Shown here: positions 1 through 61,149 of the stretch, one piece after another
Layout of the letters: every line of letters starts with the position of its first letter
Position numbering within the stretch: position 1 is the stretch's first letter
From: a virus
Virus record (IMG/VR): IMGVR_UViG_3300045988_180675
Coordinates: 64,001-128,000 of that record
Strand: one strand, 5' to 3'
DNA: 64,000 bases
Program-made: the position numbers and the translations under genes
Notes under the pieces: model-generated
The model's database searches: none
The model's input: only the letters and a program-made list of their open reading frames with translations
Told to the model about the DNA's origin: nothing

Positions 1-253
1 AGCAACCTTTCCTATCAACCAATGTTGTTTTATTTTCTGTAATCATATTTGCGATCGTCTTTTCGATAATGATGAACAAAGATTGGAAGTCCACCTTCGT
101 TTCAGGAAAACAATGGTGATAAGACTCAATACCAAAAGTTTCCTTTAATTCATTAAAAAAGAATTTGTCACTAAAGTCCATTCCGAATAGTTGAGTAGTA
201 AATACAGTTTCTTCCGTTTTTTCATCTTTCAAGATCAGTTCTATTTTTCTCAT
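1..253 (-). CDS. hypothetical protein, N-terminal 84 codons (3' end beyond left edge)
   Basis: ATG at 253 opens a stop-free frame to position 1 (MRKIELILKDEKTEETVFTTQLFGMDF...). It is absent from the ORF track because no stop lies in the window. An extended -10 sits upstream. Confidence 0.5.
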   Translation of the reverse strand, partial: MRKIELILKDEKTEETVFTTQLFGMDFSDKFFFNELKETFGIESYHHCFPETKVDFQSLFIIIEKTIANMITENKTTLVDRKGC

Positions 254-279
254 ATTTTCTTCTCTCTTTCTTTACCCAA

Positions 280-288
280 ATTATATCA
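280..288 (-). promoter_or_regulatory. extended -10 promoter for gene 1..253
   Basis: The reverse complement of 280-288 reads TGATATAAT, about 27 nt upstream of the ATG at 253. Confidence 0.45.
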
Positions 289-504
289 TATTCTTCATAT
301 TTTCTCAAAAGAAAATAAAATAGAAAGACACAAGATATGCACAAACAAATAGATCCAAACCTCGTTCCCTGTTTCTTTCTTAGCTCTTCTTTTTTTTATT
401 AAAAGAGAGAGAATAGGAAAGTGGTAAGAAAAGGTATACGCAAGAAAGGATACAGGAAGAACAAAGGAAGAACACAGGAAATTTAACTCAGTCAAAATTA
501 CAGC

Positions 505-533
505 TTGCCATATACTGTTATTCCTGTTATACT
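505..533 (+). promoter_or_regulatory. sigma-A type promoter TTGCCA-N17-(TG)TATACT with ATACTGTTAT box in spacer
   Basis: -35 TTGCCA at 505-510, a 17-nt spacer, TG at 525-526, and -10 TATACT at 528-533. The ATACTGTTAT box is at 512-521. Confidence 0.55.
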
Positions 534-539
534 TTAAGT

Positions 540-635
540 AGCTGATCTACCAAGGGTAGAAACAGATCCGAGAAACCACTTTAAAACTTCCTGTAAGACG
601 CAGCAGGAAAGATAAGGTGGTTCCTTGTTTTTTAT
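540..635 (+). ncRNA. candidate ~95-nt small RNA (promoter-to-terminator unit without ORF)
   Basis: It lies downstream of the 505-533 promoter. Hairpins: CTACC/GGTAG (547-561), TTCCTG/CAGGAA (588-609), and a long-range stem GAAACCAC/GTGGTTCC (572-579 with 617-624) followed by a T-run at 628-634. No SD-ATG is present. Confidence 0.4.
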
Positions 636-891
636 ATAAAGAAATAAGAATAGGAGAAGTCGGACATGAGAACTCTCCAGTTTTTCTCTTGCCCCTCTTC
701 TTTTTTTAGAAAAGAAAGAAATAAGGAAAAGGCAGGGAAAACATAAGGGAGGTATATCAGAACGAAATAATATGGATCCAGATTATGTAATCAGTGGAAC
801 GGGAATTACAGGATCCAACCGTGAGTCCATATATTGTTTGCTATATCTTAGGTTGCTGCATTACTCTACTTTATCTTTATTTATATAATAT

Positions 892-1574
892 TGGATTCCT
901 CTACTATACCAATATACAGTATGTACAGTTATTATATTGGGCTATTCTAGTAGTCCATATTTATTATTCAGTATCGTTTATCTTGGGCTACTCTAATAGA
1001 ACAAAATTTTACAATAAGCCCATTATTCTCTATGGTTCTATCTTTTGTTTTTGGTTTGCTCTAGTAGCCCAGTATTATAACGATCTATATTTATACTTGG
1101 TCTACTCTATCGACCCAGTATCCTTTATTTATGCAAATTATTTTTTGGGCTTATCTACTAACCCATATTCTTATATATTACCTATATTTTTGGGCTGATC
1201 TACTGGACCAACTTCATTCTTGGTTTTCTCTATCAACCCATTATTTATCCAGATCAAACTAATTCTTGGGCTATTCTATCAGCCCATACTTTTTCTATTC
1301 TTGGTTTTCTCTATAAGACCAATCTCATTACACTGGGCTACTTAAGTATACCAGTCTATACAGATTCTTGGGCTACTAGACGGAACCATTTTTCTTATCT
1401 TAGTTTTCTTATTTCTTGGGCTACTCTACTATCCATATTATTTTCTTGATCTACTTCTTTTTGGGTCGCTATAGCAGACCAATATTTTATATATCTCTTT
1501 ATTTTCTTGGGCTACTATACGAGTCCAATTTTTATTCTTTAATATCTTTAATCTTGGGCTACTATAGCAGACCG
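892..1574. repeat. phased array of ~16 dyad-symmetric 20-bp sites, consensus TGGGCTACTCTAnnAGnCCA (iteron/centromere-like)
   Basis: Copies start at 892, 938, 984, 1052, 1098, 1146, 1191, 1221, 1267, 1302, 1334, 1369, 1417, 1462, 1508 and 1555. Spacing is mostly 45-48 bp. The arms co-vary, e.g. TGGGCT..AGCCCA at 1267 and TGGTC..GACCCA at 1098. Confidence 0.8.
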
Positions 1575-2885
1575 TGTTTTTAGGTGATTTTTGGAAAACG
1601 TGCCCTGCTCGCTGCTCTCTGGCTCTATGCAATGTTTATTTTCGCCCACTTCCGCCTCCCCTTTGGGGTTCGTTCGCAGCTCGCTTTTTCTTTTTTATAC
1701 TTCTTATTTTCCTATCCATCTTCTTGTTATTATCTTATACAGGAAAATCTACGTGATCACCGTGATGAAAGTGGTGCAAAATGGGATTTTAAACGGAAAA
1801 AGAGAGAAATATCAAGAAAACTAAAGAGAAAGTCCTTATATTCTCCTTTATTTAAAGGGAAAAAAGAAAGAAAGTATCGAAAAAGTAAACTTCTTACTAG
1901 ATTTCGGTATATTTTCTTAACAAATTCCCTTATTTTCAGCTTCTTCTTACTAATTTCCTACTGAATTCCGATTCTTAAAAAAGGAAAAAAGAAAGAAAAA
2001 ATGTCGTTTCTGAATACAAAAATATCGAATTATGTCAAATTCATCCCTATTTTAAGGAAGAAATGCCTATTCTTGTCCGTTCTCTCTTTATTTTCAGGAA
2101 GCCGTTGTGTTTTCCCATGTCTTTTCTGTATCTTTTTCTTATGTTTGAAAAGAAATTAACAGGAAAAGGGTAGAGAAGTTACCCAAGAATGCTTAAATTT
2201 ATCACTTAATTCTATGATCGTAATGAGAAAAGGCGAGATAAGATGCGAAAAAAGTGCAGAAATCGCCTATTTTACCCCTTCGACCTAGGTTTAAAAGGAA
2301 AAGTGGGGCTAGAGCATATTGTTACTAAGTAGAAAGCCTTTGTGTTTTCCTGTGTTTTTTCTTTTTATTTTCCCTTGTTTAAAAAGAAGAAGAAAGGAAA
2401 AAGGAAATTCATAGGCAAAAGTGCTGGAATGCACTTTCGCTCAAACTTATATTCTCAAAACTTATGAAGAAAACTAGGAAATAAAGAAGGAAGATACAGG
2501 AGTGACCTAGGTATCAATGATATTTAAGTTATGATGAAGCATTGGAAGAAGAAAAAGAAGGTACTGGAGAAATTAAAGTAGAGATTATGGTTATGTCGTA
2601 GATGGGGTTTATGATTTCCTTTTATTTTCTTTTGTTTGGGGTTTGATTATTCATTGATACTTCGGCATACAGGGAAGCCACTAGATTTTCTTGAAGTGAT
2701 CTCGAATTATTTCTTTCGTTTGAAAAGAATAAGATACGGAAGAGAAAAAGATATTATTTCGTATCATAGGTTTCTTTTGCTTTTGCCTGCACTACACGGT
2801 GTTGGACGCCTGTGAGTTAAGTGTTAATACTTGCTTATTAAGATGAAAATAGTGCAAAAAATAAACAGTATTTTATGTAAATTCT

Positions 2886-2922
2886 GCGACAATACATATA
2901 CTCAATATGTAAATGTCACACA
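2886..2922. promoter_or_regulatory. nested inverted repeat sharing GYGACAATACATATA with the mob-proximal repeat (candidate oriT-like site, copy 2)
   Basis: GCGACA...TGTCAC arms enclose ACATAT..ATATGT. On the minus strand it contains TATGTGTGAC. Confidence 0.3.
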
Positions 2923-2942
2923 TAGTTTTCTTTGCAGTTACT

Positions 2943-3011
2943 ATTTTATATTCTTTTAAGAATATGTTTTGGAGTATTTTTATATTCTCTATGGAAAGCA
3001 TTTTTATATTC
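2943..3011 (+). repeat. three direct repeats ATTTT(T)ATATTCT
   Basis: Copies are at 2943-2954, 2976-2988 and 2999-3011, just downstream of the relaxase gene. Confidence 0.5.
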
Positions 3012-3020
3012 TAGTTAGCA

Positions 3021-3053
3021 AATAAAAAAGGAAGATATTTGATATTATCTTCC
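3021..3053 (-). terminator. intrinsic terminator of relaxase gene
   Basis: Stem GGAAGATA (3030-3037) pairs with TATCTTCC (3046-3053). The T-run on the minus strand is the A-run at 3023-3029. Confidence 0.6.
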
Positions 3054-3863
3054 TGTGAATTCTGATAAAGCTTGTCTATTTTTGCTTTCTTTATCACTAT
3101 GTTCTTGTCTAAGTTTTTTAGCTCTTTCACGTTCTTCTTGGATAGCTTTATTGATGAAATCCATCTTGCTTAGATGCTCTCGTTTCATTGGAACACGGTC
3201 AATCATCAAGCCTAAACTCTGACATATCTCACAGAATTTTTCTCTGATCATAGCTGTGTAGGTGATCAGTCTGTTGTTGAATCTTGACTCTGGTTCATCC
3301 GCAAATGGAAGTGGAATACCAGCTTGTTCAAGTGCTTTTTCCTTTCCGATCTCAAGTCTAGTAGTGCCATCAGGATTACGCTCCTTATAAACAAAAATTT
3401 TACGTTCGTGAATATGTGGAGTTGACTCATCAAGATGTAAAGCTGAATCGAGAACGATAACACGACCTTTTGTGATTTGCTTTTCATACTCTGCCAACTG
3501 CTTATAGGCTTCAGATAATTTATCTGCATCTGGAAAGTCATATAAGTTTCCGATCTGGATAATACTTTCCGTAGGTCTGTATCTTGATGACTTACGGAAT
3601 TGATCCATCGTCATAAGCCTATCCTTTTTTCTGATTTTTCTGACTTTTTCATTTCTAAATTCTAAAGCATCTGCAAAGTGTTCTTCATAAAATCGTTTCT
3701 CAGCAGCCTCAAAGTCGTCTGCCATTTCTGGATAAAAGCACTCATACACATTATCAGAAACTCTTTCTTGGATGACATGAGGAGATTCATTTAAATCATA
3801 ATTTCGACAATTATGGTTTGGATTTCCCTCCCATTTTTGCCCATTGTGAATTGATACTTTCAT
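3045..3863 (-). CDS. mob: MobV-family (Mob/Pre) relaxase
   Basis: HNCR lies near the N-terminus. ALHLDESTPHIHERKIF matches the HxDExxPHxH motif (compare MobM HLDESTPHMH). The start is moved to ATG 3863, which has an AGAGG SD, instead of the track start at 3920. Confidence 0.85.
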   Translation of the reverse strand: MKVSIHNGQKWEGNPNHNCRNYDLNESPHVIQERVSDNVYECFYPEMADDFEAAEKRFYEEHFADALEFRNEKVRKIRKKDRLMTMDQFRKSSRYRPTESIIQIGNLYDFPDADKLSEAYKQLAEYEKQITKGRVIVLDSALHLDESTPHIHERKIFVYKERNPDGTTRLEIGKEKALEQAGIPLPFADEPESRFNNRLITYTAMIREKFCEICQSLGLMIDRVPMKREHLSKMDFINKAIQEERERAKKLRQEHSDKESKNRQALSEFTGR

Positions 3864-3891
3864 TTTAAATAACCTCTTTTCTCTAGTAAGG

Positions 3892-3942
3892 AGTATACCA
3901 CATAAAAAAAGTTGTGACAATACATATATATAATGTCACAAC
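3892..3942 (-). promoter_or_regulatory. mob promoter (TGGTATACT) overlapped by perfect 9-bp inverted repeat GTTGTGACA-N14-TGTCACAAC (operator / candidate oriT)
   Basis: The reverse complement of 3892-3900 is TGGTATACT. The inverted repeat spans 3911-3942. Confidence 0.5.
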
Positions 3943-3953
3943 TAAAATTGTAT

Positions 3954-4715
3954 TTACACTGCAAAAGACAAGTCCTTTGGAAGATCAGCATAAAACTCTT
4001 CTCCTGTTTCAAGACAAAGACAGCCAAGTGGTAACTGCCTTGCACATCCACAATCAAGATTGATTAGATGTCCTTTTGCTGCCTTTGAAATCTTTGGTAG
4101 TCCTCCAGATCTAGTTTGACCATAAGAACATTTGAATACTGGGGTATGACCGATCAGAAGCGTAGTATCTTTGTACAGGGTATATAAAGAATGAAACTTG
4201 TTATACAAAAGAGTAGGGTTCATACTGTTGGCATATTCTCTACTCCACAACACACGTTCACGATCATGCGTGTTGGCATCTTTATACAATAAGATATCGT
4301 TATAGTAATAATCTAAATGGGTTGCATGAGCGATGTAGTATTGCTTATCGTTGATACTTAAATTAGGAATAACGATTGGGCATTGAGTAAGGTCGTAGAG
4401 GATTGAATACTGTTCTGTAAATAGAAGCTCTTCAAACTGTTTTAAAGTTTTTTCGTTTCCATTTGAACTCCATATATACATCGCATCGTCATCTTTTTCA
4501 AGCAAAGCCTGAAGCATAAGATGCTCATGATTTCCAATCAATAAAACGATATTCGGCTTAGATAATATGTGTTGTAACAACTTAATTGATTGATCGCCTC
4601 TATCTATTACATCTCCATTGACATATAAAATATCTTCATCAGAGAAATTTATCTTTTTTAATATATCCAGAAAATAGTCGTATTGACCATGAATATCACT
4701 CATTACATAATGCAT
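3954..4715 (-). CDS. PPP-family metallophosphoesterase (Ser/Thr phosphatase / ApaH-like)
   Basis: The motifs DIHG, GDVIDRGD, GNHE and GHT occur in canonical order. Confidence 0.8.
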   Translation of the reverse strand: MHYVMSDIHGQYDYFLDILKKINFSDEDILYVNGDVIDRGDQSIKLLQHILSKPNIVLLIGNHEHLMLQALLEKDDDAMYIWSSNGNEKTLKQFEELLFTEQYSILYDLTQCPIVIPNLSINDKQYYIAHATHLDYYYNDILLYKDANTHDRERVLWSREYANSMNPTLLYNKFHSLYTLYKDTTLLIGHTPVFKCSYGQTRSGGLPKISKAAKGHLINLDCGCARQLPLGCLCLETGEEFYADLPKDLSFAV

Positions 4716-4740
4716 TTTTACCGCCTTTCTACATGCCTAT

Positions 4741-4758
4741 ATTATATCATAACAGTAT
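4741..4758 (-). promoter_or_regulatory. class-2 promoter (ATACTGTTAT box + TGATATAAT)
   Basis: The reverse complement reads ATACTGTTATGATATAAT. It lies upstream of the phosphatase start at 4715. Confidence 0.55.
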
Positions 4759-4821
4759 GATATTTTAAAGATTATGATGCTTTTATTATGCGATTTTAAA
4801 AAGAAAAATCTAACCTTTTGG

Positions 4822-6627
4822 CTAGATTTCTTTTTTGTATATCTGGATATAATCCATATCTTTTTTCTCTTCGTTATATCCTTTAACTTGTACGATTTCC
4901 TGAACTGTAAAATCTTGTAGATATACGATTGTGTCAAATGACTTAGTAGAACGTTTCGCTTGTTCATAGGTTACATTTTGCATTCCTCTTAATGTTAGAT
5001 CAACAAGCTTATCACTTGCATCTCTTGCCGATTGAGAGTGGATCGATAAAGCCGTTCTACATCCAGAGTTTGATAATGTAATAGCAGATACCACTTCAGG
5101 ACCTTTTACTTCACCAATAATAAATACATTGGCACCAGCAACTAAAGCCATCTGTCCTAACTGCTCTAGCGTACATGGTTGTTGTCCGTTTTGTGGATTT
5201 AATACAACATGTTCAAACATGATTCCTTTTCGATAAGCAAATAATTCATCGTTTTCTTGGATACATAAGATTTCTGCCGAAGATTCATAGGCTTCTTCTA
5301 AAAACCAATTAAGCAAAGTTGTTTTACCAGATCCAGGAGGACCAGCAAATACGACTCCCTTACTATACTTCCCACAATCAAGTAGGTAGTTGCGAATCTT
5401 TTCATCCATCATTCCAGCTTTGATTAAATCGTCAGCCATTAACTTCTTTCTAGGTAACTTTCGAATATGAATAATAGGATATCCAGAGCATGTAATATAT
5501 GGTGCTGTGATAGAAAATCTTAACAGGTATTGTTCATCCTGCTCATCTGTAAATGTCTGGGTTGGAACACCTAAGTCGATTCCGTTTACAGTCGCTACAC
5601 CATTAATAAATCTTATATAGTCAGCCTGATCGATAAAGGTGATATTTGAAAGATACGCCTTTCCTTTGATTCTGACTCTTATTGAATAAGGATCCGTAAT
5701 TTTAATATCACTAATATCTGGATCGTCAATAAGGTCCTGTACGATATATAATTCAAATAATGCTCTATGTAGCTTTTCAATTAGTGCTGGGACATCTTCT
5801 CTTTGAAGTCTTAAAGTATCTACAAATGTTCTTTGGATGTATGCCTTTAACATCTCCATAAAAGATTCTTCATCTTTTTGACCTCTTAATACACTATAAT
5901 AAGAATTCTTTTCTGCTTCTGTAATATAGCCCATTGCCTCTTGGAAGATTGAGACAAAATGCTCGTAATCGCAAATTGTTTTTATTTGCATATCTTTAGC
6001 TTTTAGGTTATAAACAAGTTCTTCTCGACTATCGATTTCTTCAAGCCGTCTTGGAATATAAGTATCCAGCTGATTTAAAAATGGCTTTTGTGTAGACGAT
6101 GTTTTTAATTTTTCATCTTGTTCCTCTACCATTTGTAGATGTAGTTCTCTTTCTTCTTCTGTATAATTTCTCTTTATATCATTAGGAATGATCAGCTTGC
6201 TTTTTTCTTCAGTAGTATTATCTTGCTTTACCCCTATAAAATCATACAATTCACCAAATTTAATTTTTTGCCCATAAAAACGAATTAACACATAAGCCTC
6301 AAGATAATCTCCAACTAGTTTTACAGAGATCGATAAAGGATCAAAAAGTGTTTCTTTCTTTTTAATGTTTAAAAATTCGTTTATCTTTTTTTGCAGTTCT
6401 GTGATACCAATAAGGAGACTATGCTTTGATACAAACATGTAAACTGGATTAGCCCAAACGCCACCTTTGTCTGGAATGATGGTATTTGCTATTTTTTCAA
6501 AAGATTCGCCTTTTGAATAAATGATAAATTCATCTCTGTCTTGTAATTGGTATTTCTCTTCTAATTTTGCTAATTGAGAATTGTTTTTTGCGATTCCAAC
6601 AATTACATTTCCTTTATCTCTTGTCAT
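4822..6627 (-). CDS. CpaF/VirB11-type secretion ATPase with ~250-aa extra N-terminal region
   Basis: Walker A GPPGSGKTT, Asp box ILCIQENDELF, Walker B IIGEVKGPE and His box LSIHSQSA are present. The N-domain carries DLIDDPDISDIKI. There is a 4-nt start/stop overlap with the upstream gene. Confidence 0.75.
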   Translation of the reverse strand: MTRDKGNVIVGIAKNNSQLAKLEEKYQLQDRDEFIIYSKGESFEKIANTIIPDKGGVWANPVYMFVSKHSLLIGITELQKKINEFLNIKKKETLFDPLSISVKLVGDYLEAYVLIRFYGQKIKFGELYDFIGVKQDNTTEEKSKLIIPNDIKRNYTEEERELHLQMVEEQDEKLKTSSTQKPFLNQLDTYIPRRLEEIDSREELVYNLKAKDMQIKTICDYEHFVSIFQEAMGYITEAEKNSYYSVLRGQKDEESFMEMLKAYIQRTFVDTLRLQREDVPALIEKLHRALFELYIVQDLIDDPDISDIKITDPYSIRVRIKGKAYLSNITFIDQADYIRFINGVATVNGIDLGVPTQTFTDEQDEQYLLRFSITAPYITCSGYPIIHIRKLPRKKLMADDLIKAGMMDEKIRNYLLDCGKYSKGVVFAGPPGSGKTTLLNWFLEEAYESSAEILCIQENDELFAYRKGIMFEHVVLNPQNGQQPCTLEQLGQMALVAGANVFIIGEVKGPEVVSAITLSNSGCRTALSIHSQSARDASDKLVDLTLRGMQNVTYEQAKRSTKSFDTIVYLQDFTVQEIVQVKGYNEEKKDMDYIQIYKKEI

Positions 6628-7827: not shown

Positions 7828-7888
7828 ATCGTAATTTTTATGCAGTTTTACCAATAGAGTATAAAAATGGAAATAGTTCTCGAAAATC

Positions 7889-7908
7889 ATACTGTTATAT
7901 GATATAAT
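7889..7908 (+). promoter_or_regulatory. class-2 promoter (ATACTGTTAT + TGATATAAT)
   Basis: ATACTGTTAT is at 7889-7898 and TATAAT at 7903-7908. It lies upstream of the ATG at 7937. Confidence 0.55.
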
Positions 7909-7936
7909 ATAAATGAAATAAATAGAAAGGACTATT

Positions 7937-8389
7937 ATGGACAAGAAATATAAAGCAATCCCCTATAAGGTTACAACCCATCATGATGCCATTGAAGATA
8001 AGAATGAACCATGGAATAGTGAACCAGCCTATGATACTTCTGAAATACGTTATTGTATCGTGTCGAATGAAACAGGAGAAGTTTTAGACGATGCACAAGG
8101 ATATGGATACAGAACAGCACAAAAGGCTTATGCAGGTTATGCGTATAAGACAAGGGATAAGAGTAAAGATCGGGAAAGAGAAAATAAGAAAAAACATATC
8201 CAAAAATGGATGAAAGAACACAAGGGATTTGTCAGAGCCATGGACGAAACAGCTTTTGAAATTTTAAAAGGCACTTGGGGACCCGATGACGAATTTGATG
8301 CTAAACAAGTCAAGGATATGCTTAAAGAATGGGGGTTAAATCCAGACTTTACAGCAGGCGAATTATTAAGGGTGTGGAGAAATTGGTAA
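7937..8389 (+). CDS. hypothetical protein
   Basis: The ORF has a GAAAGGA SD. No motif was recognised. Confidence 0.6.
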   Translation: MDKKYKAIPYKVTTHHDAIEDKNEPWNSEPAYDTSEIRYCIVSNETGEVLDDAQGYGYRTAQKAYAGYAYKTRDKSKDRERENKKKHIQKWMKEHKGFVRAMDETAFEILKGTWGPDDEFDAKQVKDMLKEWGLNPDFTAGELLRVWRNW

Positions 8390-8423: not shown

Positions 8424-10167
8424 ATTTCGACATATTTGCTAATCCTTTCGTGAAACTTGTTTGATTTAGATCTTCGATTTCAAAATCTAGGAATTGGATC
8501 TGTTGTGTAACTAATAAAGTTCCATCATTCTTCTTAAAGAAGTTGTTTGAAATGTTACCATACAATGTTAATGTTGCTGGTCCATTGATGGAAGATGCTA
8601 ACTTAGCTAGTCCAAAACCAACGGCTGTAGAAGTGGATGACACAAATTTAATACCGCCACCTCCAATTTCCTTCTTGTAAGATCCATAATTTTGAACGAT
8701 TTGAAATCCAGTGACCTTAAAGATAAGATCTGGATTACCATTTCCTAATGGCTGGAATTTTTCATTCTCTGTAATAGCTGCTAGTAGATCCTCGTTCTTT
8801 ATTTCAACATCATACTCTAAGGTATCAGTTGCTTTAGGATCGAATGGTGTTACATTTTGTTGCATATTCTTCACCATTGCTTCAAATCCATCTTTTGTAA
8901 CGGATGCACCAGCTGCTCCAGCATGTCCACCATGTCCTAAGAAAGAATCAGCACATCTATCAAGATGCTCCTTTATATCGTATCCTTCTGGGGCACGGAA
9001 TGAGCCTTTGAGAACTCCATCTTGACCATTTGTAAATACCGCACATGGCAAGTTGTATCTCTCTAATATCTTTGCCGCTAAAATTCCAATAATACCTGGT
9101 TTGATGTCTGGCACATAAACAATGACTGGGTTTTTGATTTCATTAGCTTTTTCTAAAACTTCAAGTTGAGGTAAGATACCCTGTTCATAAGCATTAGCTG
9201 TTGCCAATTTTCTTTCATCATTACACTGCTTTAAAATCTTCATAAGTTCTAAACATTCAGAGTAATCGGAAGATGTTAATAGTTCTACAGCGTATTTTGC
9301 ATAACCATCATACATACGCTCTAAAGCATTGATTGCTGGTCCACAAGTGAATCCTGCCGTAACTCCAGTCCAATGAGAGATTCCAAACTCATAAGCCATT
9401 GCCTTTAATCCTGGCAGAGCATTTGTAATATCATTGTTTAGAACCTTTAAACCCTGATAGGCTATAACATAATTTTCTTCTGTTAATACCATTTGATCGC
9501 AAAATGTAGCAAGCATTGCAATTGGCTTTAATAGCTCAAGCAATGGATTGCTGCTGCCCAATAATGAACGAGCAATCTTGTAGGCATTTCCTGCCCCACA
9601 GTATCCTGTAAAATCAGCTGAATTTGGAATTGCTTCTGCATCCAATATAAAATCAGCATTTGGTAATATAGTATTACCATTTTCTATTACAGGTTGATGG
9701 TGATCAGTAACAATTACCGTGTATCCAAAACTTTTTGCATAGGCAATAGGTTCTAGTGCAGCAATACCATTATCAACTGTTAAAATAAGAATCTCTTTTG
9801 GATCCAGATTGTTATCAGACGCATACTGGTTTACTTCATCGACCATTGTTTTGTTTAAACCAAATCCTTCGCACCTACGTGGGATCCGATAGTGAACATT
9901 GGTAAAACCAGTCCATCTCATTGCCCATATAAGAATTGAAATCGCACTTGTTCCATCTACATCATAGTCACCGAAAATAAAAATTGTTTTATTTTTATAT
10001 TCGTTGATCTTTGCAGTAATTTTTGGTAAGTCCTTCATGCTGTATTGATCAGTGATAGAACGCTTAAACCAATTGTTGATTTCTTGTACTGAATTTAGCC
10101 CAAGGTTTTTTAAATGGGCTTCGGCGATGGAATTTACTCCATCTCTTTTCTTAAATTTGTATTTCAT
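8422..10167 (-). CDS. recJ: RecJ-like single-strand DNA exonuclease (DHH/DHHA1)
   Basis: It carries the motifs FGDYDVDGTSA, VDNG, VTDHH and GGHAGAAG. Confidence 0.9.
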   Translation of the reverse strand: MKYKFKKRDGVNSIAEAHLKNLGLNSVQEINNWFKRSITDQYSMKDLPKITAKINEYKNKTIFIFGDYDVDGTSAISILIWAMRWTGFTNVHYRIPRRCEGFGLNKTMVDEVNQYASDNNLDPKEILILTVDNGIAALEPIAYAKSFGYTVIVTDHHQPVIENGNTILPNADFILDAEAIPNSADFTGYCGAGNAYKIARSLLGSSNPLLELLKPIAMLATFCDQMVLTEENYVIAYQGLKVLNNDITNALPGLKAMAYEFGISHWTGVTAGFTCGPAINALERMYDGYAKYAVELLTSSDYSECLELMKILKQCNDERKLATANAYEQGILPQLEVLEKANEIKNPVIVYVPDIKPGIIGILAAKILERYNLPCAVFTNGQDGVLKGSFRAPEGYDIKEHLDRCADSFLGHGGHAGAAGASVTKDGFEAMVKNMQQNVTPFDPKATDTLEYDVEIKNEDLLAAITENEKFQPLGNGNPDLIFKVTGFQIVQNYGSYKKEIGGGGIKFVSSTSTAVGFGLAKLASSINGPATLTLYGNISNNFFKKNDGTLLVTQQIQFLDFEIEDLNQTSFTKGLANMSK

Positions 10168-12014: not shown

Positions 12015-12042
12015 AAAAATTGTGGATAAAGTGTGAATAAAA

Positions 12043-15463: not shown

Positions 15464-16147
15464 ATGCTGAAATTTTATGATATGCCAGTTGGGCTTGGAA
15501 AAGATAGAGAAAAGAGTCTACTATTTTACTTGAACGATATGGCACAGAAAACAAGTGGGTTTGTTCTTGAGTATTGCCCACAACTAGTGACATTGGATAA
15601 TGTCCCAGATGATATTGTACGGGTTAGGCAGATGTTAACGCCAGCAACTATAACCGATTTAACGGAACAAGATAACCTGATTACATCTGTTGTCAGAAGA
15701 ATTCATTCTATTGAGTATTATGATTTTGAATATCCTGATAATTATGTTGCTTTTAATATATTAGAAGCTGCATTTATTACAGAAGTTGCTTTCATGGTTG
15801 CCATGATCAAAGACGGGAAGGAAAAAGAACTAAAGACTTTTATTGAAAAGAATTATAAGATCAACGATGAAGATCTGAGGAGATATTTAAAAGTTAGGAA
15901 GTACGTTCCAGAGGTCAAAGGGAAACTCGATCTGAACAAAATTGAAGAGTTCGAAGGGTTTTATTGTGATTTAGAGGTTACGAAAGATACTGAATATCAT
16001 GGGATTGAAACTTTAAAAAAATTCTACAAGAAAAACAAACTGAATCTCTTTGAAAGCCCAATGATAATGTTAGCTTGTTTCATGAGCAGAGAACAGATTA
16101 TCAAAATGTTATTCCAGTTAAAAGAAGAAAAGAAAGAAGAAAAATAA
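15464..16147 (+). CDS. hypothetical protein
   Basis: The ORF has an AAAGGAG SD and is the first gene of a 4-gene plus-strand operon. Confidence 0.6.
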   Translation: MLKFYDMPVGLGKDREKSLLFYLNDMAQKTSGFVLEYCPQLVTLDNVPDDIVRVRQMLTPATITDLTEQDNLITSVVRRIHSIEYYDFEYPDNYVAFNILEAAFITEVAFMVAMIKDGKEKELKTFIEKNYKINDEDLRRYLKVRKYVPEVKGKLDLNKIEEFEGFYCDLEVTKDTEYHGIETLKKFYKKNKLNLFESPMIMLACFMSREQIIKMLFQLKEEKKEEK

Positions 16148-57500: not shown

Positions 57501-58202
57501 CTAGCCTCTCATATTGTTAAACTGAGAAAAGAAATCATACTCTTCTCCATCTGTTAATGTAGGATCTGGAGCGTTTGCGATATCATCTTCTGAGATTACT
57601 TCACTTGTTTCTTCTACTGCCTTTACTGGAGCAGCTTGAACTACTGTTGGTTCCTGCTTTACAATAGGCTTTTCAACAACTGGTTGTTTAGCTTCATCTT
57701 TATCTTCCGTGCTGTAATCTGGTAACTTTTCAACTCTAACAGGAGCTTTCTTCTTTGGCTTTAAGATATCGTCAATTGTGATACGCTTATTCTTTTTAGG
57801 TTCAAGTAATACAACATTCTCTAAGCCTTCCAGACGTATCAATTTAATGCGTTCTGTCTCCTTCTTGATAGTTGTATCATTTCTTAGAAATACGGCTATC
57901 TGTGGCGTTAAAAGGCATGATCTAACAAGTGTTTTAAAGAATGCTGTACGCCAACCTTCCTTGATTTCTCTTTTGAGAAAATCGACGCTTTGTTTATCCT
58001 TGACTTCGAATAACAAGTGATATGTACGTTTTTTCTCTTTTAGTGTAAATGGAATGGCGTTAGGAACAACAAAGGTAATTTGTTGTCCTCTAACATAATA
58101 TTCCAACGCCTTCTTCATTAGCATTGTAACGGATATTCCATTTGCATTTAATGAAATAAGATCTGCGTCATAATTCTTATAAAGCTTTAATTCAACTCTC
58201 AT
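57501..58202 (-). CDS. ParR-like centromere-binding adaptor candidate (RHH-like N-terminus, disordered linker, acidic-aromatic C-terminus)
   Basis: It lies immediately downstream of the parM-like gene. The N-terminus MRVELKLY..DADLISL..MLMKKALEYY fits a strand-helix-helix pattern. The C-terminus is DGEEYDFFSQF. Confidence 0.45.
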   Translation of the reverse strand: MRVELKLYKNYDADLISLNANGISVTMLMKKALEYYVRGQQITFVVPNAIPFTLKEKKRTYHLLFEVKDKQSVDFLKREIKEGWRTAFFKTLVRSCLLTPQIAVFLRNDTTIKKETERIKLIRLEGLENVVLLEPKKNKRITIDDILKPKKKAPVRVEKLPDYSTEDKDEAKQPVVEKPIVKQEPTVVQAAPVKAVEETSEVISEDDIANAPDPTLTDGEEYDFFSQFNNMRG

Positions 58203-58210
58203 AGATCACC

Positions 58211-59377
58211 TTACTGAGCTTGCTGTCTTAATGAGCGACTCACCTTTTCATATAGATACATGTAGTATCCTCTTGCATTCGAATAATCAAAGCTAAGAGA
58301 CTTATCATTTTGGTTTCCATCGATTACAACCAAGCCTTCAATGCCTGATAAAGTTTGTCTAATAGTATCAGCCCATGCTGCACTTGTTCCGCCTGTAATG
58401 ACAAAATAGTTGAACTCATATAGCTCGTACATTCTGCCAATTCTATCTAACGCTGCATGACAAACTTTTTCACTTTCACGCTGCAAGATTTCCTTGATAG
58501 GTATATGTCCACTGCTGAATCGACTATGCTTGATAACAGTTCCTGTTTCTAAGCACTTCTGGATGGCAATAGGTGATACTTCAACACCATGATTTCTTTG
58601 GATCTCAGCACGCACATTTGCCAGCACTTGTTTCATTGCGAATTCTGGGAATGTCTGCTTATCAACAACTCTATTGTTCTTGATAATAAACATATCTAAA
58701 GTTCCGTGTCCGCCATCAAAGATGATCAAGTTTCTGTTGAAGTAAAAACCAGATTCAGGAATTGCCTTATGGTTGTTCCCCATTGCAATTGACATTAGTG
58801 TACCCATTGGCTGTTCCATAACGTCAACGTTTTCCTTGCCAATCACGATATCATATTCAACTGGCTCATCTGCACCGATCTTCAATGCAAAGTGATGTCT
58901 TCCTGCAAAAGCATTTTTAAGATATGGACTATCTTGTTCTAAATACGCTGATGGTAGACCAGTTTCGATCCAAATCTTTTTTCCAATGTAATTTCCATAT
59001 TGGTTTTGACTGCAAGCAATACCGATTGCCACATCAACTAATACCAAGAACATCGGATCATCATAACGTTCACGCCCATACAGTGTGTTATCTGAATGTG
59101 ATGTATCGCCCTGCTTAATATTGTTTAATGCTGATTCACCAACGATCCAACGCTCACCTGTTTCTAAATTCTTATAAATAATAGAATAAGGAGCTGGCGT
59201 ACCGATTGTTTTAGAATCATCCATCTCAGCAAAAGCTGGGAAAATAGCGTTCTTATTTGGGGAAACTACTTTAACAGCAGAGTATCCGATATCAATTCCG
59301 CAAACCCAATTACCACTAGGGCTACCATTTGGTCTGTCGGCAAAATTTGTTTTAATTTTGTAATCTCTTGTTTCCAT
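58211..59377 (-). CDS. parM: ParM/Alp-family actin-like segregation ATPase
   Basis: Phosphate-1 is GIDIGYSAVKV and phosphate-2 is IFDGGHGTLD. The adenosine motif is VITGGTSA. Confidence 0.75.
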   Translation of the reverse strand: METRDYKIKTNFADRPNGSPSGNWVCGIDIGYSAVKVVSPNKNAIFPAFAEMDDSKTIGTPAPYSIIYKNLETGERWIVGESALNNIKQGDTSHSDNTLYGRERYDDPMFLVLVDVAIGIACSQNQYGNYIGKKIWIETGLPSAYLEQDSPYLKNAFAGRHHFALKIGADEPVEYDIVIGKENVDVMEQPMGTLMSIAMGNNHKAIPESGFYFNRNLIIFDGGHGTLDMFIIKNNRVVDKQTFPEFAMKQVLANVRAEIQRNHGVEVSPIAIQKCLETGTVIKHSRFSSGHIPIKEILQRESEKVCHAALDRIGRMYELYEFNYFVITGGTSAAWADTIRQTLSGIEGLVVIDGNQNDKSLSFDYSNARGYYMYLYEKVSRSLRQQAQ

Positions 59378-59395
59378 TTTATTTCCTTTCTTATT

Positions 59396-59908
59396 TTAGA
59401 ATGGTAATGCAAACACTACCTTTTCTTCGATTTCATCTATTGTAATTGGTCCGATCTTTCTGCTGTCATAAGAATTGTTTCGGTTATCTCCAAGAACGAA
59501 ATATTCATTTTCTTTTAAGGTGTAACCATCTTCATATTCTCCCATATCAAGCATTGCTTCTAAACTTCTGTTTTCTCGATTGTTATTCCTGTAAGCATAT
59601 CCATTTTGAAGTTTTATCTCCTCTTCTGGTAATGCCACAACTCGCTTGATAATTTTGTGGGATTTCCCATCCTTTTCTTCGAAAGAATGGTCTTTCATCT
59701 TGTCGGCTGGAACCCTGAATACCACAACATCGTTTTCGTCAATATCCTTTTCTGAAGTGACGACTCTTGTAATAAGGATTGTTCCGTTTTTATAGGTAGG
59801 AGACATTGAATCTCCCACCACACGGACCGTTCTAAATCCAGCTAACCGAAAGCCAAATGCAATAGCTAAGCCAACTAGAATACTTGTTAAATATGGATGC
59901 TTCTTCAT
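59396..59908 (-). CDS. lepB: type I signal peptidase
   Basis: It has an N-terminal TM segment, VVGDSMSPT (Ser), KRVVALPEE (Lys) and GDNRNNSYDSR. Confidence 0.9.
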   Translation of the reverse strand: MKKHPYLTSILVGLAIAFGFRLAGFRTVRVVGDSMSPTYKNGTILITRVVTSEKDIDENDVVVFRVPADKMKDHSFEEKDGKSHKIIKRVVALPEEEIKLQNGYAYRNNNRENRSLEAMLDMGEYEDGYTLKENEYFVLGDNRNNSYDSRKIGPITIDEIEEKVVFALPF

Positions 59909-60966: not shown

Positions 60967-61149
60967 TCACGCTTTCTTCATGTCTTCTTCAACTAAATCG
61001 ACAAAGTATCCGTTTAACGATTTGTTTCGCTTTTCCTTTGCAAACTTTTTGATCTTATCACGTTGCCCTTTTTTTACTGTTAGACAAATACGATCGTATG
61101 TCTTTTTATTGTATTCACGGGCAATCTCTGTTTTATTACTTCTTTTCAT
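60967..61149 (-). CDS. ribbon-helix-helix (CopG/Arc-like) DNA-binding protein
   Basis: KTYDRICLTVKKGQRDKIKKFAKEKRNKSLNGYFVDLVEEDM fits a strand-helix-helix pattern. It is the first gene of the par/sip operon. Confidence 0.6.
   Translation of the reverse strand: MKRSNKTEIAREYNKKTYDRICLTVKKGQRDKIKKFAKEKRNKSLNGYFVDLVEEDMKKA

Follow-up and report, generated by a model that had tools for sequence, protein, structure and literature searches.

A conserved array of oriented pseudo-palindromic sites in a family of ~200-kb elements, possibly a maintenance or partition locus

Near the left end of the 64,000-nucleotide stretch of viral DNA analysed here (positions 64,001 to 128,000 of IMG/VR record IMGVR_UViG_3300045988_180675, referred to as the window), sixteen copies of a 20-bp sequence lie within about 700 bp, and the locus raises the question of what such an array does for the element that carries it. 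The window forms part of a contig of 199,422 bp in JGI metagenome 3300053491. A preliminary description of the sequence had taken the array for a candidate centromere or iteron origin, without choosing between the two. It is found here to be a genuine, conserved and oriented cis-element of pseudo-palindromic sites, presumably protein-binding, in an uncharacterised family of ~200-kb elements in which no partner genes adjoin it, and the evidence leans towards a centromere or maintenance array rather than an origin. The array and its sites are the following.

889..1577, plus strand: array of 16 oriented 20-bp pseudo-palindromic sites (evidence from repeats, position weight matrix, shuffles and relatives)
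892, 938, 984, 1052, 1098, 1146, 1191, 1221, 1267, 1302, 1334, 1369, 1417, 1462, 1508 and 1555, plus strand: starts of the 16 sites
857..880, plus strand: candidate degenerate 17th site (TGCATTACTCTACTTTATCTTTAT), weak; 75% identical to 892-915, 35 bp left of the first site and below the matrix threshold

A position weight matrix (PWM) built from the 16 sites found each of them again at the starts given in the preliminary description, all on the plus strand and with scores of 19.7-32.8 bits, and returned nothing of 10 bits or more in the other 63 kb of the window; shuffled whole windows gave 0-6 matches of at least 8 bits. The simple pattern TGG-N14-CCA occurs 12 times in all of the remaining window and 13 times in 850-1600, where 1000 dinucleotide shuffles of the same region led to an expectation of 0.10 on average and 2 at most, so that the comparison with shuffled AT-rich sequence, named beforehand as one that could refute the array, came out in its favour. 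The stricter pattern TGG-N5-TNTA-N5-CC has 12 matches in the array region and none in the rest of the window, and a k-mer cluster scan identified the array as the sole local repeat cluster in the 64 kb. Given the uniqueness of the PWM matches, the enrichment over shuffles and the single k-mer cluster, the 16-site array is real and far beyond chance. Successive sites are spaced by 46, 46, 68, 46, 48, 45, 30, 46, 35, 32, 35, 48, 45, 46 and 47 bp, which agrees with the earlier account of a 45-48 bp spacing with a centre of 30-35 bp and adds one 68-bp gap. With three nucleotides of flank on either side, the array consensus is TCT-TGGGCTACTCTAnnAGnCCA-ATA. The spacers had been called AT-rich and alike; they are 67-89% A+T, but their likeness is limited, with a T-rich 3′ end that is weakly conserved.

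Pooling the sites of this array with those of its relatives, described below, gave 191 unique sites and the consensus TGGKYT..TM/TA..A.MCCA, the stroke marking the centre (T1 G2 G3 K4 Y5 T6, T9 M10, T11 A12, A15, M17 C18 C19 A20). Position 10.5 is the centre of symmetry of the profile, with a mean complementary match there of 0.54 compared to 0.15-0.38 at all other centres (191 sites); G2 G3, T9, A12 and C18 C19 are invariant and the remaining positions drift. The left half of the site and its 5′ flank (TCTTGGGCTACTCTA) are far more conserved than the right half, and the sites are therefore oriented, all in one direction. In the preliminary description the two arms were said to change together, and the selection of dyad symmetry was argued from this covariation; the symmetry holds as a pseudo-palindrome at the level of the profile, but the covariation does not. 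Swapping right arms between sites leaves their pairing unweakened (z of +0.07 for the 16 window sites, and +1.6 and +2.0 on the two strands over all pooled sites), mutual information at the mirror pairs 4-17 and 5-16 is 0.03 bits, and the other mirror pairs reach at most 0.05 bits except 10-11 at 0.13, the highest values belonging to adjacent positions. Two of the examples put forward, the sites at 1098 and 1462, have arms that pair only with a one-base offset. By arm swaps and mutual information alike, the compensatory change within sites that a hairpin calls for is absent, and each arm drifts independently around a degenerate half-site, a pattern to be expected where a protein recognises bases, but not in an RNA, single-stranded DNA (ssDNA) or cruciform hairpin. 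A pseudo-palindromic profile without arm covariation thus points to protein read-out rather than nucleic-acid structure, and the sites fit a predicted dimeric or pseudo-dimeric DNA-binding protein.

The region had also been described as free of open reading frames (ORFs). An ORF at 794..1198 does overlap the array, yet it is non-coding: its substitutions by codon position (102:108:125) have no third-position bias, and its frame is broken in relatives, where tblastn matches are split across frames and units of 46-47 bp are inserted or deleted. A conserved, expressed protein from this ORF had been named as an observation that would overturn the interpretation; comparison with relatives shows no coding. 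The earlier reading of sites for a dimeric protein, and not of a coding repeat, is thus supported by the symmetry of the profile and the non-coding ORF.

The search of related replicons that the preliminary description called for found that 16 related metagenomic contigs carry this array, flanked by the same pair of genes (L099, fourteen loci from a metagenome scan and one contig from IMG/VR), each with 11-19 sites. The sites of all relatives share one direction and the compressed centre is kept, the pooled spacings, 194 in all, falling into modes of 46-47 bp (124 lie at 45-48 bp), 30-35 bp (41) and 40-41 bp (9). When orthologous arrays are compared, conservation is alike for sites and for spacers (0.83 and 0.81), and within the non-coding region the array is what has been rearranged most, entire units having come and gone as 46-47 bp indels. 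Some relatives (L111, L114 and L121) carry a TnpB insertion sequence (IS) at the exact left edge of the array; these had been candidates for relatives without an array and were rejected as such, the IS lying at the array edge and the contigs ending within the array. Relatives tolerate both the gain or loss of units and an IS at the edge of the array. The inserted gene is a 449-aa TnpB/IS605-OrfB-like gene (L114 335-1684, minus strand, also in L111 and L121) whose promoter and ribosome-binding-site segment is ~90% identical to window positions 7871-7931, upstream of a 150-aa ORF at 7937..8389. Homologues of the 183-aa gene to the left of the array are limited to a tight clade of contigs with at least 77% identity, many of them 184-206 kb long; the elements of the clade measure ~180-206 kb. 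The DNA of positions 600-2400 had no match among PLSDB plasmids and INPHARED phages, and motif-pair scans of viral and genome contig collections returned chance matches only; tandem repeats in L090 and L094 that share CTTGGGCTACT with the array were discarded as unrelated chance resemblances.

In its architecture the array matches the sopC centromere of plasmid F, where 43-bp units stand 12 in a row and a SopB dimer binds the 16-bp inverted repeat of each; in natural sopC arrays the units, 43-45 bp long, number 3-17, no precise number being required (PMC3177203). The array had been considered of unusual size on the grounds that known centromeres are much smaller, a view that does not stand because the sopC class is equally large. 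Common to both are tandem direct repeats of ~43-46 bp with one inverted-repeat site each (16 bp in sopC, 20 bp here), a total length of 0.5-0.75 kb, a variable number of units (3-17 in sopC, 11-19 here) and similar outer site bases, TGGG...CCCA. The two differ in that the array consensus TGGKYTnnTM/TAnnAnMCCA fails the SopB consensus TGGGACC-RY-GGTCCCA, with a different spacer length within the site. The spacing here is uneven (modes of 46-47, 30-35 and 40-41 bp) and corresponds to non-integral helical turns, the spacers are poorly conserved between units, and the element is of low GC with Firmicute-type genes, whereas F is an enterobacterial plasmid. Moreover, counterparts of sopA and sopB (ParA and ParB) are neither adjacent nor detected here, in gene searches that covered ~80 ORFs in the window and ~18 in the 27 kb to its left, or ~90 kb of the element's ~199 kb.

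The best explanation, put forward tentatively and at somewhat less than even probability, is that the array is a sopC-like docking platform for the maintenance or partition of a ~200-kb extrachromosomal element. Each 20-bp pseudo-palindrome would be occupied by a sequence-specific DNA-binding protein, either a dimer or a pair of pseudo-dimeric molecules, and 16 occupied sites at ~46-bp intervals would assemble into one large nucleoprotein complex that serves maintenance or partition. Such a locus would be a centromere with the architecture of sopC, built of tandem units with one inverted-repeat site each and a variable unit number, and the variation in site number among relatives (11-19) speaks for a centromere or maintenance array and against an iteron origin. 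We infer protein binding, the role as a centromere and the identity of the binder from sequence and structural models. The most plausible motor would be an actin-like ATPase, with a tandem ribbon-helix-helix (RHH) protein as its adaptor on a centromere 56 kb away; the genes concerned are adjacent to one another.

58211..59377, minus strand: actin-like (ParM-type) ATPase (ALP_N 3.5e-14; NCBIfam ParM 7.7e-16, below cut-off)
57501..58202, minus strand: 233-aa protein directly downstream of the actin-like gene, modelled as a tandem RHH protein

No other segregation motor is recognisable in the window, and the ATPase shares 39% identity with ParM/StbA of Butyrivibrio pCY360 and Ruminococcus pRUMAL01. 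The 233-aa protein matches no sequence family; its homologues in pCY360 and pRUMAL01 are encoded just after ParM/StbA. In its AlphaFold2 (AF2) model, residues 1-100 form two beta-alpha-alpha units (pLDDT 64-92), followed by a disordered linker and an acidic C-terminal helix, and the top PDB fold matches, both weak, are the F TraY relaxosome protein (9f0y_E, probability 0.85, E 0.07) and VirC2. This weak but coherent evidence suggests a candidate single-chain tandem RHH DNA binder, which may be the adaptor and the protein that binds the array, and the ATPase would then be linked to the array through it. The preliminary description had listed ParM/ParR-like proteins and RHH proteins in the window; the first pair is recovered as the actin-like ATPase and the modelled RHH protein, but the 60-aa 'RHH' protein at 60967..61149 has no Pfam support. 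The region of the actin-like protein (ALP) operon (57.5-62 kb) holds no repeat cluster and no match to the array motif, and because neither this operon nor the other intergenic regions of the window hold repeat clusters, the array is the only visible candidate centromere.

This arrangement has features in common with the ParMRC/Alp parC systems (R1, pSK41, pLS20 alp7C), in which an actin-like ATPase is likewise followed by a small RHH-type protein, here a candidate that is RHH-type by its model and has an acidic C-terminal helix; pSK41 ParR binds 20-bp units. Known parC sites are contiguous 10-11 bp repeats embracing the operon promoter, whereas the sites here are 20-bp dyads with ~26-bp spacers, lie 56 kb from the ALP operon and are absent from its promoter. 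An analogy may also be drawn with oriP of Epstein-Barr virus (EBV), whose family of repeats comprises 20 copies of 30 bp, each with a palindromic EBNA1 site: both are long tandem arrays of palindromic dimer sites, in oriP for episome maintenance, with a separate core element nearby, although EBV is a eukaryotic virus and its proteins and motif are unrelated. Around the ALP operon itself, an 11-12 bp tandem repeat (TCTTATTTCCAT, 2.7 copies) lies at 59366-59396, at the junction of the signal-peptidase and actin-like genes. In pCY360 (L127 3288-7185), a metallophosphoesterase and a type II/type IV secretion system (T2SS/T4SS)-family ATPase homologous to those of this element adjoin ParM/StbA; here the metallophosphoesterase/ATPase pair adjoins the array, and the ParM-like gene is 56 kb off. 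A distant relative of the ALP-adaptor operon is found in L133 (1450-2313), beside an RNA-polymerase beta′-like fragment.

Several observations weigh against a maintenance or partition array. No partition gene is adjacent to it, whereas the parC and sopC sites described so far adjoin their operons; beyond the visible ~90 kb of the ~199 kb there may be a ParAB or Rep system. The actin-like operon, as stated, is 56 kb distant. A spacing of 46-47 bp amounts to ~4.4 helical turns, so that the sites are not on one face of the helix, unlike those of sopC. No array-type site or half-site was found in any promoter elsewhere in the window, and autoregulation of the ParR-parC type is therefore absent; nor were arrays found near the homologous ALP-adaptor operons of pCY360, pRUMAL01, MT835474 and L133. 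The RHH assignment, finally, derives from a medium-confidence model with weak fold matches (E 0.07). A more specific proposal, unlikely when taken as a whole, is that of a remote centromere acting 56 kb from an actin-like segregation or DNA-positioning machine, through a single-chain tandem-RHH adaptor of the TraY/VirC2 fold: two adaptors would bind each 20-bp dyad, the 16 dyads would form a filament-capturing complex, and the carrier would be a widespread, uncultured ~200-kb element with a mix of phage and plasmid genes. If true, this would be a type II-like system with a sopC-like centromere and no autoregulatory coupling, possibly serving DNA transfer too.

The immediate surroundings of the array bear on the alternatives and comprise the following features.

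254..3044, no strand: 2.8-kb region without a credible gene, holding the array, between a 183-aa orphan gene and a MobV-like gene
1597..1700, plus strand: GC-rich island directly right of the array, ending in a T-run (0.906 identity, full coverage)
505..533, plus strand: sigma-70-like promoter match TTGCCA-17-TATACT with extended -10 TG (consensus match), pointing into the array
2..253, minus strand: 5′ part of the 183-aa orphan gene, nearest on the left, reading away from the array, the remainder beyond the window
3045..3863, minus strand: MobV-like protein of 272 aa with the motif HLDESTPHIH, nearest on the right (Mob_Pre match below Pfam cut-off)

The 2.8-kb region has 85-91% identity to 10 relatives, about equal to that of the flanking genes, and synteny around it is kept in 10 of the 10 relatives that span both flanks. 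Its best-conserved stretch is the GC-rich island, which is almost invariant in close relatives, is found in this clade only and is accompanied by two 24-nt direct repeats (1590-1613 and 1662-1685); it has no Rfam match and folds no better than shuffles. Rfam searches at gathering and permissive thresholds and a tRNA scan gave nothing credible, and no separate block of repeated 13-mers was seen beside the AT-rich spacers. DnaA boxes form no cluster in 254-3044, which has just one box, at 1245, with one mismatch; two boxes come close together at one place alone in the window, 12021-12040, in the short gap before a pilin gene, where a perfect box (TTATCCACA) and a one-mismatch box lie 11 bp apart. 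The genes flanking the region converge on it, and GC skew switches from positive to negative at the array, tracking local gene orientation also when extended 17 kb to the left; the switch was accordingly rejected as a terminus-like signal, and since skew follows gene orientation no inference about replication is drawn from it. A dif-like sequence picked out by eye at ~2884-2918 was rejected as well, its central region being too long.

The 183-aa orphan has no family, fold or PDB relative and no remote homologue in 1.84 billion representative proteins; its AF2 model, at pLDDT 48, was too poor for use, and it was dismissed as the array binder. A segment of ~105 bp that includes the promoter-like site (505-609) has a ~75% identical direct copy at L001 ~15518-15631, on the other side of the orphan gene, which is thus bracketed by the repeat. 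Also to the left of the array, L001 15714-20516 encodes tandem paralogous families, with two to three proteins of ~236-238 aa and three coiled-coil-tailed proteins of ~149-158 aa, none of them assigned to a family. On both sides the array is flanked by ~8 mirror units, conserved in relatives, in which a pyrimidine tract is followed by TTTAAAAG or TTGAAAAG and then a purine tract (360-430, 610-750, 1840-2000, 2060-2175, 2335-2410 and 2610-2750); their folding is no better than that of shuffles, and two copies of GGAAGCC-n-TTGTGTTTTCC (~2098-2120 and 2335-2354) occur among them. On the right, the HLDESTPHIH motif was read from the translation of 3045..3863, and some homologues of the MobV-like protein carry PF01076. 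Its gene is the last of a block whose other products are RecJ, a 383-aa protein, a TadA/VirB11-like ATPase and the metallophosphoesterase. The distant relatives L101-L103 keep the Mob-like block with neither an adjacent non-coding region nor an array. In another distant element, L104, whose Mob-like protein is 46% identical, a strand-asymmetric (A+C-rich) non-coding region of 1.75 kb lies downstream of the Mob-like gene and contains at least 8 copies of ATAAAGACC (~12 by eye) at 3462-4033, a different repeat in a place analogous to that of the array.

As to the element itself, a second 199,422-bp contig of the same JGI metagenome is a permutation of the first, which suggests a circular element. 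The second contig starts at window position 1650, inside the GC-rich island, and the first runs through the same point; position 1650 either marks a true end or nick of the DNA or is where the assembly broke next to the tandem array. Among the replication and repair genes of the window are a DnaE fragment, three SSB-like genes, a primase and RecD2-, RecG-, UvrD- and SMC-like genes, and its other genes include PhoH, SecA, a PARP-like enzyme, a sortase with pilin, a signal peptidase and the actin-like ATPase. PhoH, a RusA-like protein, a dNMP kinase and, to the left, RNase H and a GIY-YIG nuclease are phage-like, and a relative is present in IMG/VR. No genes of the Rep, ParA or ParB families were found in the window or the 27 kb to its left, where the absence of a recognisable Rep initiator noted in the preliminary description is borne out, and neither terminase, capsid and tail genes nor VirD4, VirB4 and other type IV secretion system core genes were seen in the same ~90 kb; ten large unknown proteins had essentially no PHROG matches. 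Walking the IMG/VR relative (L132) leftwards in search of Rep or Par genes found RNase H, TnpB and GIY-YIG alone, the RNase H and the nuclease lying left of the array at 4519-4965 and 8629-9492. This gene content is a mixture of plasmid-like and phage-like genes, as might be carried by a plasmid, a jumbo phage or a phage-plasmid. The jumbo-phage-like features seen in L132 and L133 sit oddly with the sortase, pilin and Mob-like genes.

An iteron-type origin or copy-control locus is an unlikely alternative, with several features in its favour. The 16 sites would be bound by an initiator encoded elsewhere, which would melt the AT-rich spacers or the junction with the GC-rich island, or would handcuff copies as at P1 incA. 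As in RK2 oriV, P1 oriR/incA and lambda ori, oriented direct repeats of ~20 bp lie in an AT-rich, gene-free region beside a GC-rich segment, here the highly conserved island; the layout recalls the iteron, AT-rich and GC-rich succession of RK2 oriV and pPS10, and lambda iterons are dyad-symmetric as the array sites are, being bound by Lambda O as dimers. The element also encodes its own DnaE, primase, SSBs and helicases, and the promoter-like site at 505..533 is directed into the array. Against an origin, no Rep-family gene was found in the ~90 kb searched (64 kb and 27 kb to the left), the neighbours being the 183-aa orphan and the MobV-like gene and not an adjacent initiator, and DnaA boxes within 254-3044 are limited to the single imperfect one at 1245. 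The dyads are ~46 bp apart, double the usual ~22 bp of monomer iterons, GC skew follows gene orientation between converging genes, and the number of sites varies from 11 to 19 among relatives that are ~85-90% identical, whereas iteron sets of origins are normally fixed.

Less probable still is a transfer-associated array, in which the sites would be bound by a relaxosome accessory or DNA-positioning RHH protein near oriT, in the manner of TraY or VirC1/VirC2-overdrive, and would recruit the element to a transfer apparatus. The MobV-like gene lies 1.5 kb off, next to the TadA/VirB11-like ATPase, and in all relatives the array and the Mob gene block stay in synteny; the fold of the 233-aa protein is best matched by TraY and VirC2, and the pCY360 homologues of the ATPase and metallophosphoesterase are directly beside ParM. 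However, the Mob_Pre match is below threshold, the Mob-like block of L101-L103 occurs without an array, VirD4, VirB4 and other core genes of a type IV secretion system were not seen, and known accessory sites at oriT or a T-DNA border number one to few (1-3 at oriT), not 16.

Two further proposals are decidedly improbable, the second slightly more so than the first. The array might titrate or silence, with operator-like sites that sequester a repressor or nucleate a silencer spreading over a non-coding hub; its many near-consensus sites, their variable copy number and its position between convergent gene blocks with promoter-like sites inside would suit this function, but a matching operator is absent elsewhere in the window, leaving a titrated factor without a visible regulon. 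Alternatively, the array might bind a small terminase or accessory protein beside a cos or pac cut in the GC-rich island, as part of a phage packaging region. The partly phage-like genes (PhoH, RusA-like, dNMP kinase, RNase H, GIY-YIG), the IMG/VR relative and the start of one 199,422-bp contig at 1650, within the conserved island, are consistent with packaging. The contig start may be an artefact, because assemblies often break at the array (L100, L111 and L114 end there), and the permuted counterpart runs straight through 1650. Terminase, capsid and tail genes were not seen, the ten large unknown proteins are essentially without PHROG matches, and known cosB and pac regions have 3-7 sites. 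The last alternative takes the sites for RNA or ssDNA hairpins, terminator-like or protein-binding, whose loop is conserved, or else for a coding repeat in ORF 794..1198, and is disfavoured to the point of being scarcely credible: some sites fold well (1267 at z = -4.0), three were flagged by a terminator scan and the centre CTCTA is conserved while the arms vary, but arm-swapped controls pair equally well (z +0.07 to +2.0), mutual information at mirror pairs stays near 0.03 bits, half of the sites fold at -3 kcal/mol or weaker, Rfam gives no match, and the ORF lacks third-position bias and is frame-broken in relatives.

With a maintenance or partition array as the preferred reading, the locus gains interest from the family that carries it. 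The clade of ~180-206 kb elements recurs in many metagenome assemblies, has no match in the isolate plasmid and phage collections searched and consists almost entirely of unannotated genes. In practical terms, the array breaks short-read assemblies, a point of relevance to metagenomics, and it can be used as a sequence marker of the clade. A conserved and easily cloned cis-element of 700 bp is the most direct experimental handle on the maintenance of these elements, usable as bait for its binding protein and as a stability or incompatibility determinant in vectors. If the actin-like system uses the array, spaced dyad arrays acting remotely would have to be added to the known architectures of type II centromeres.

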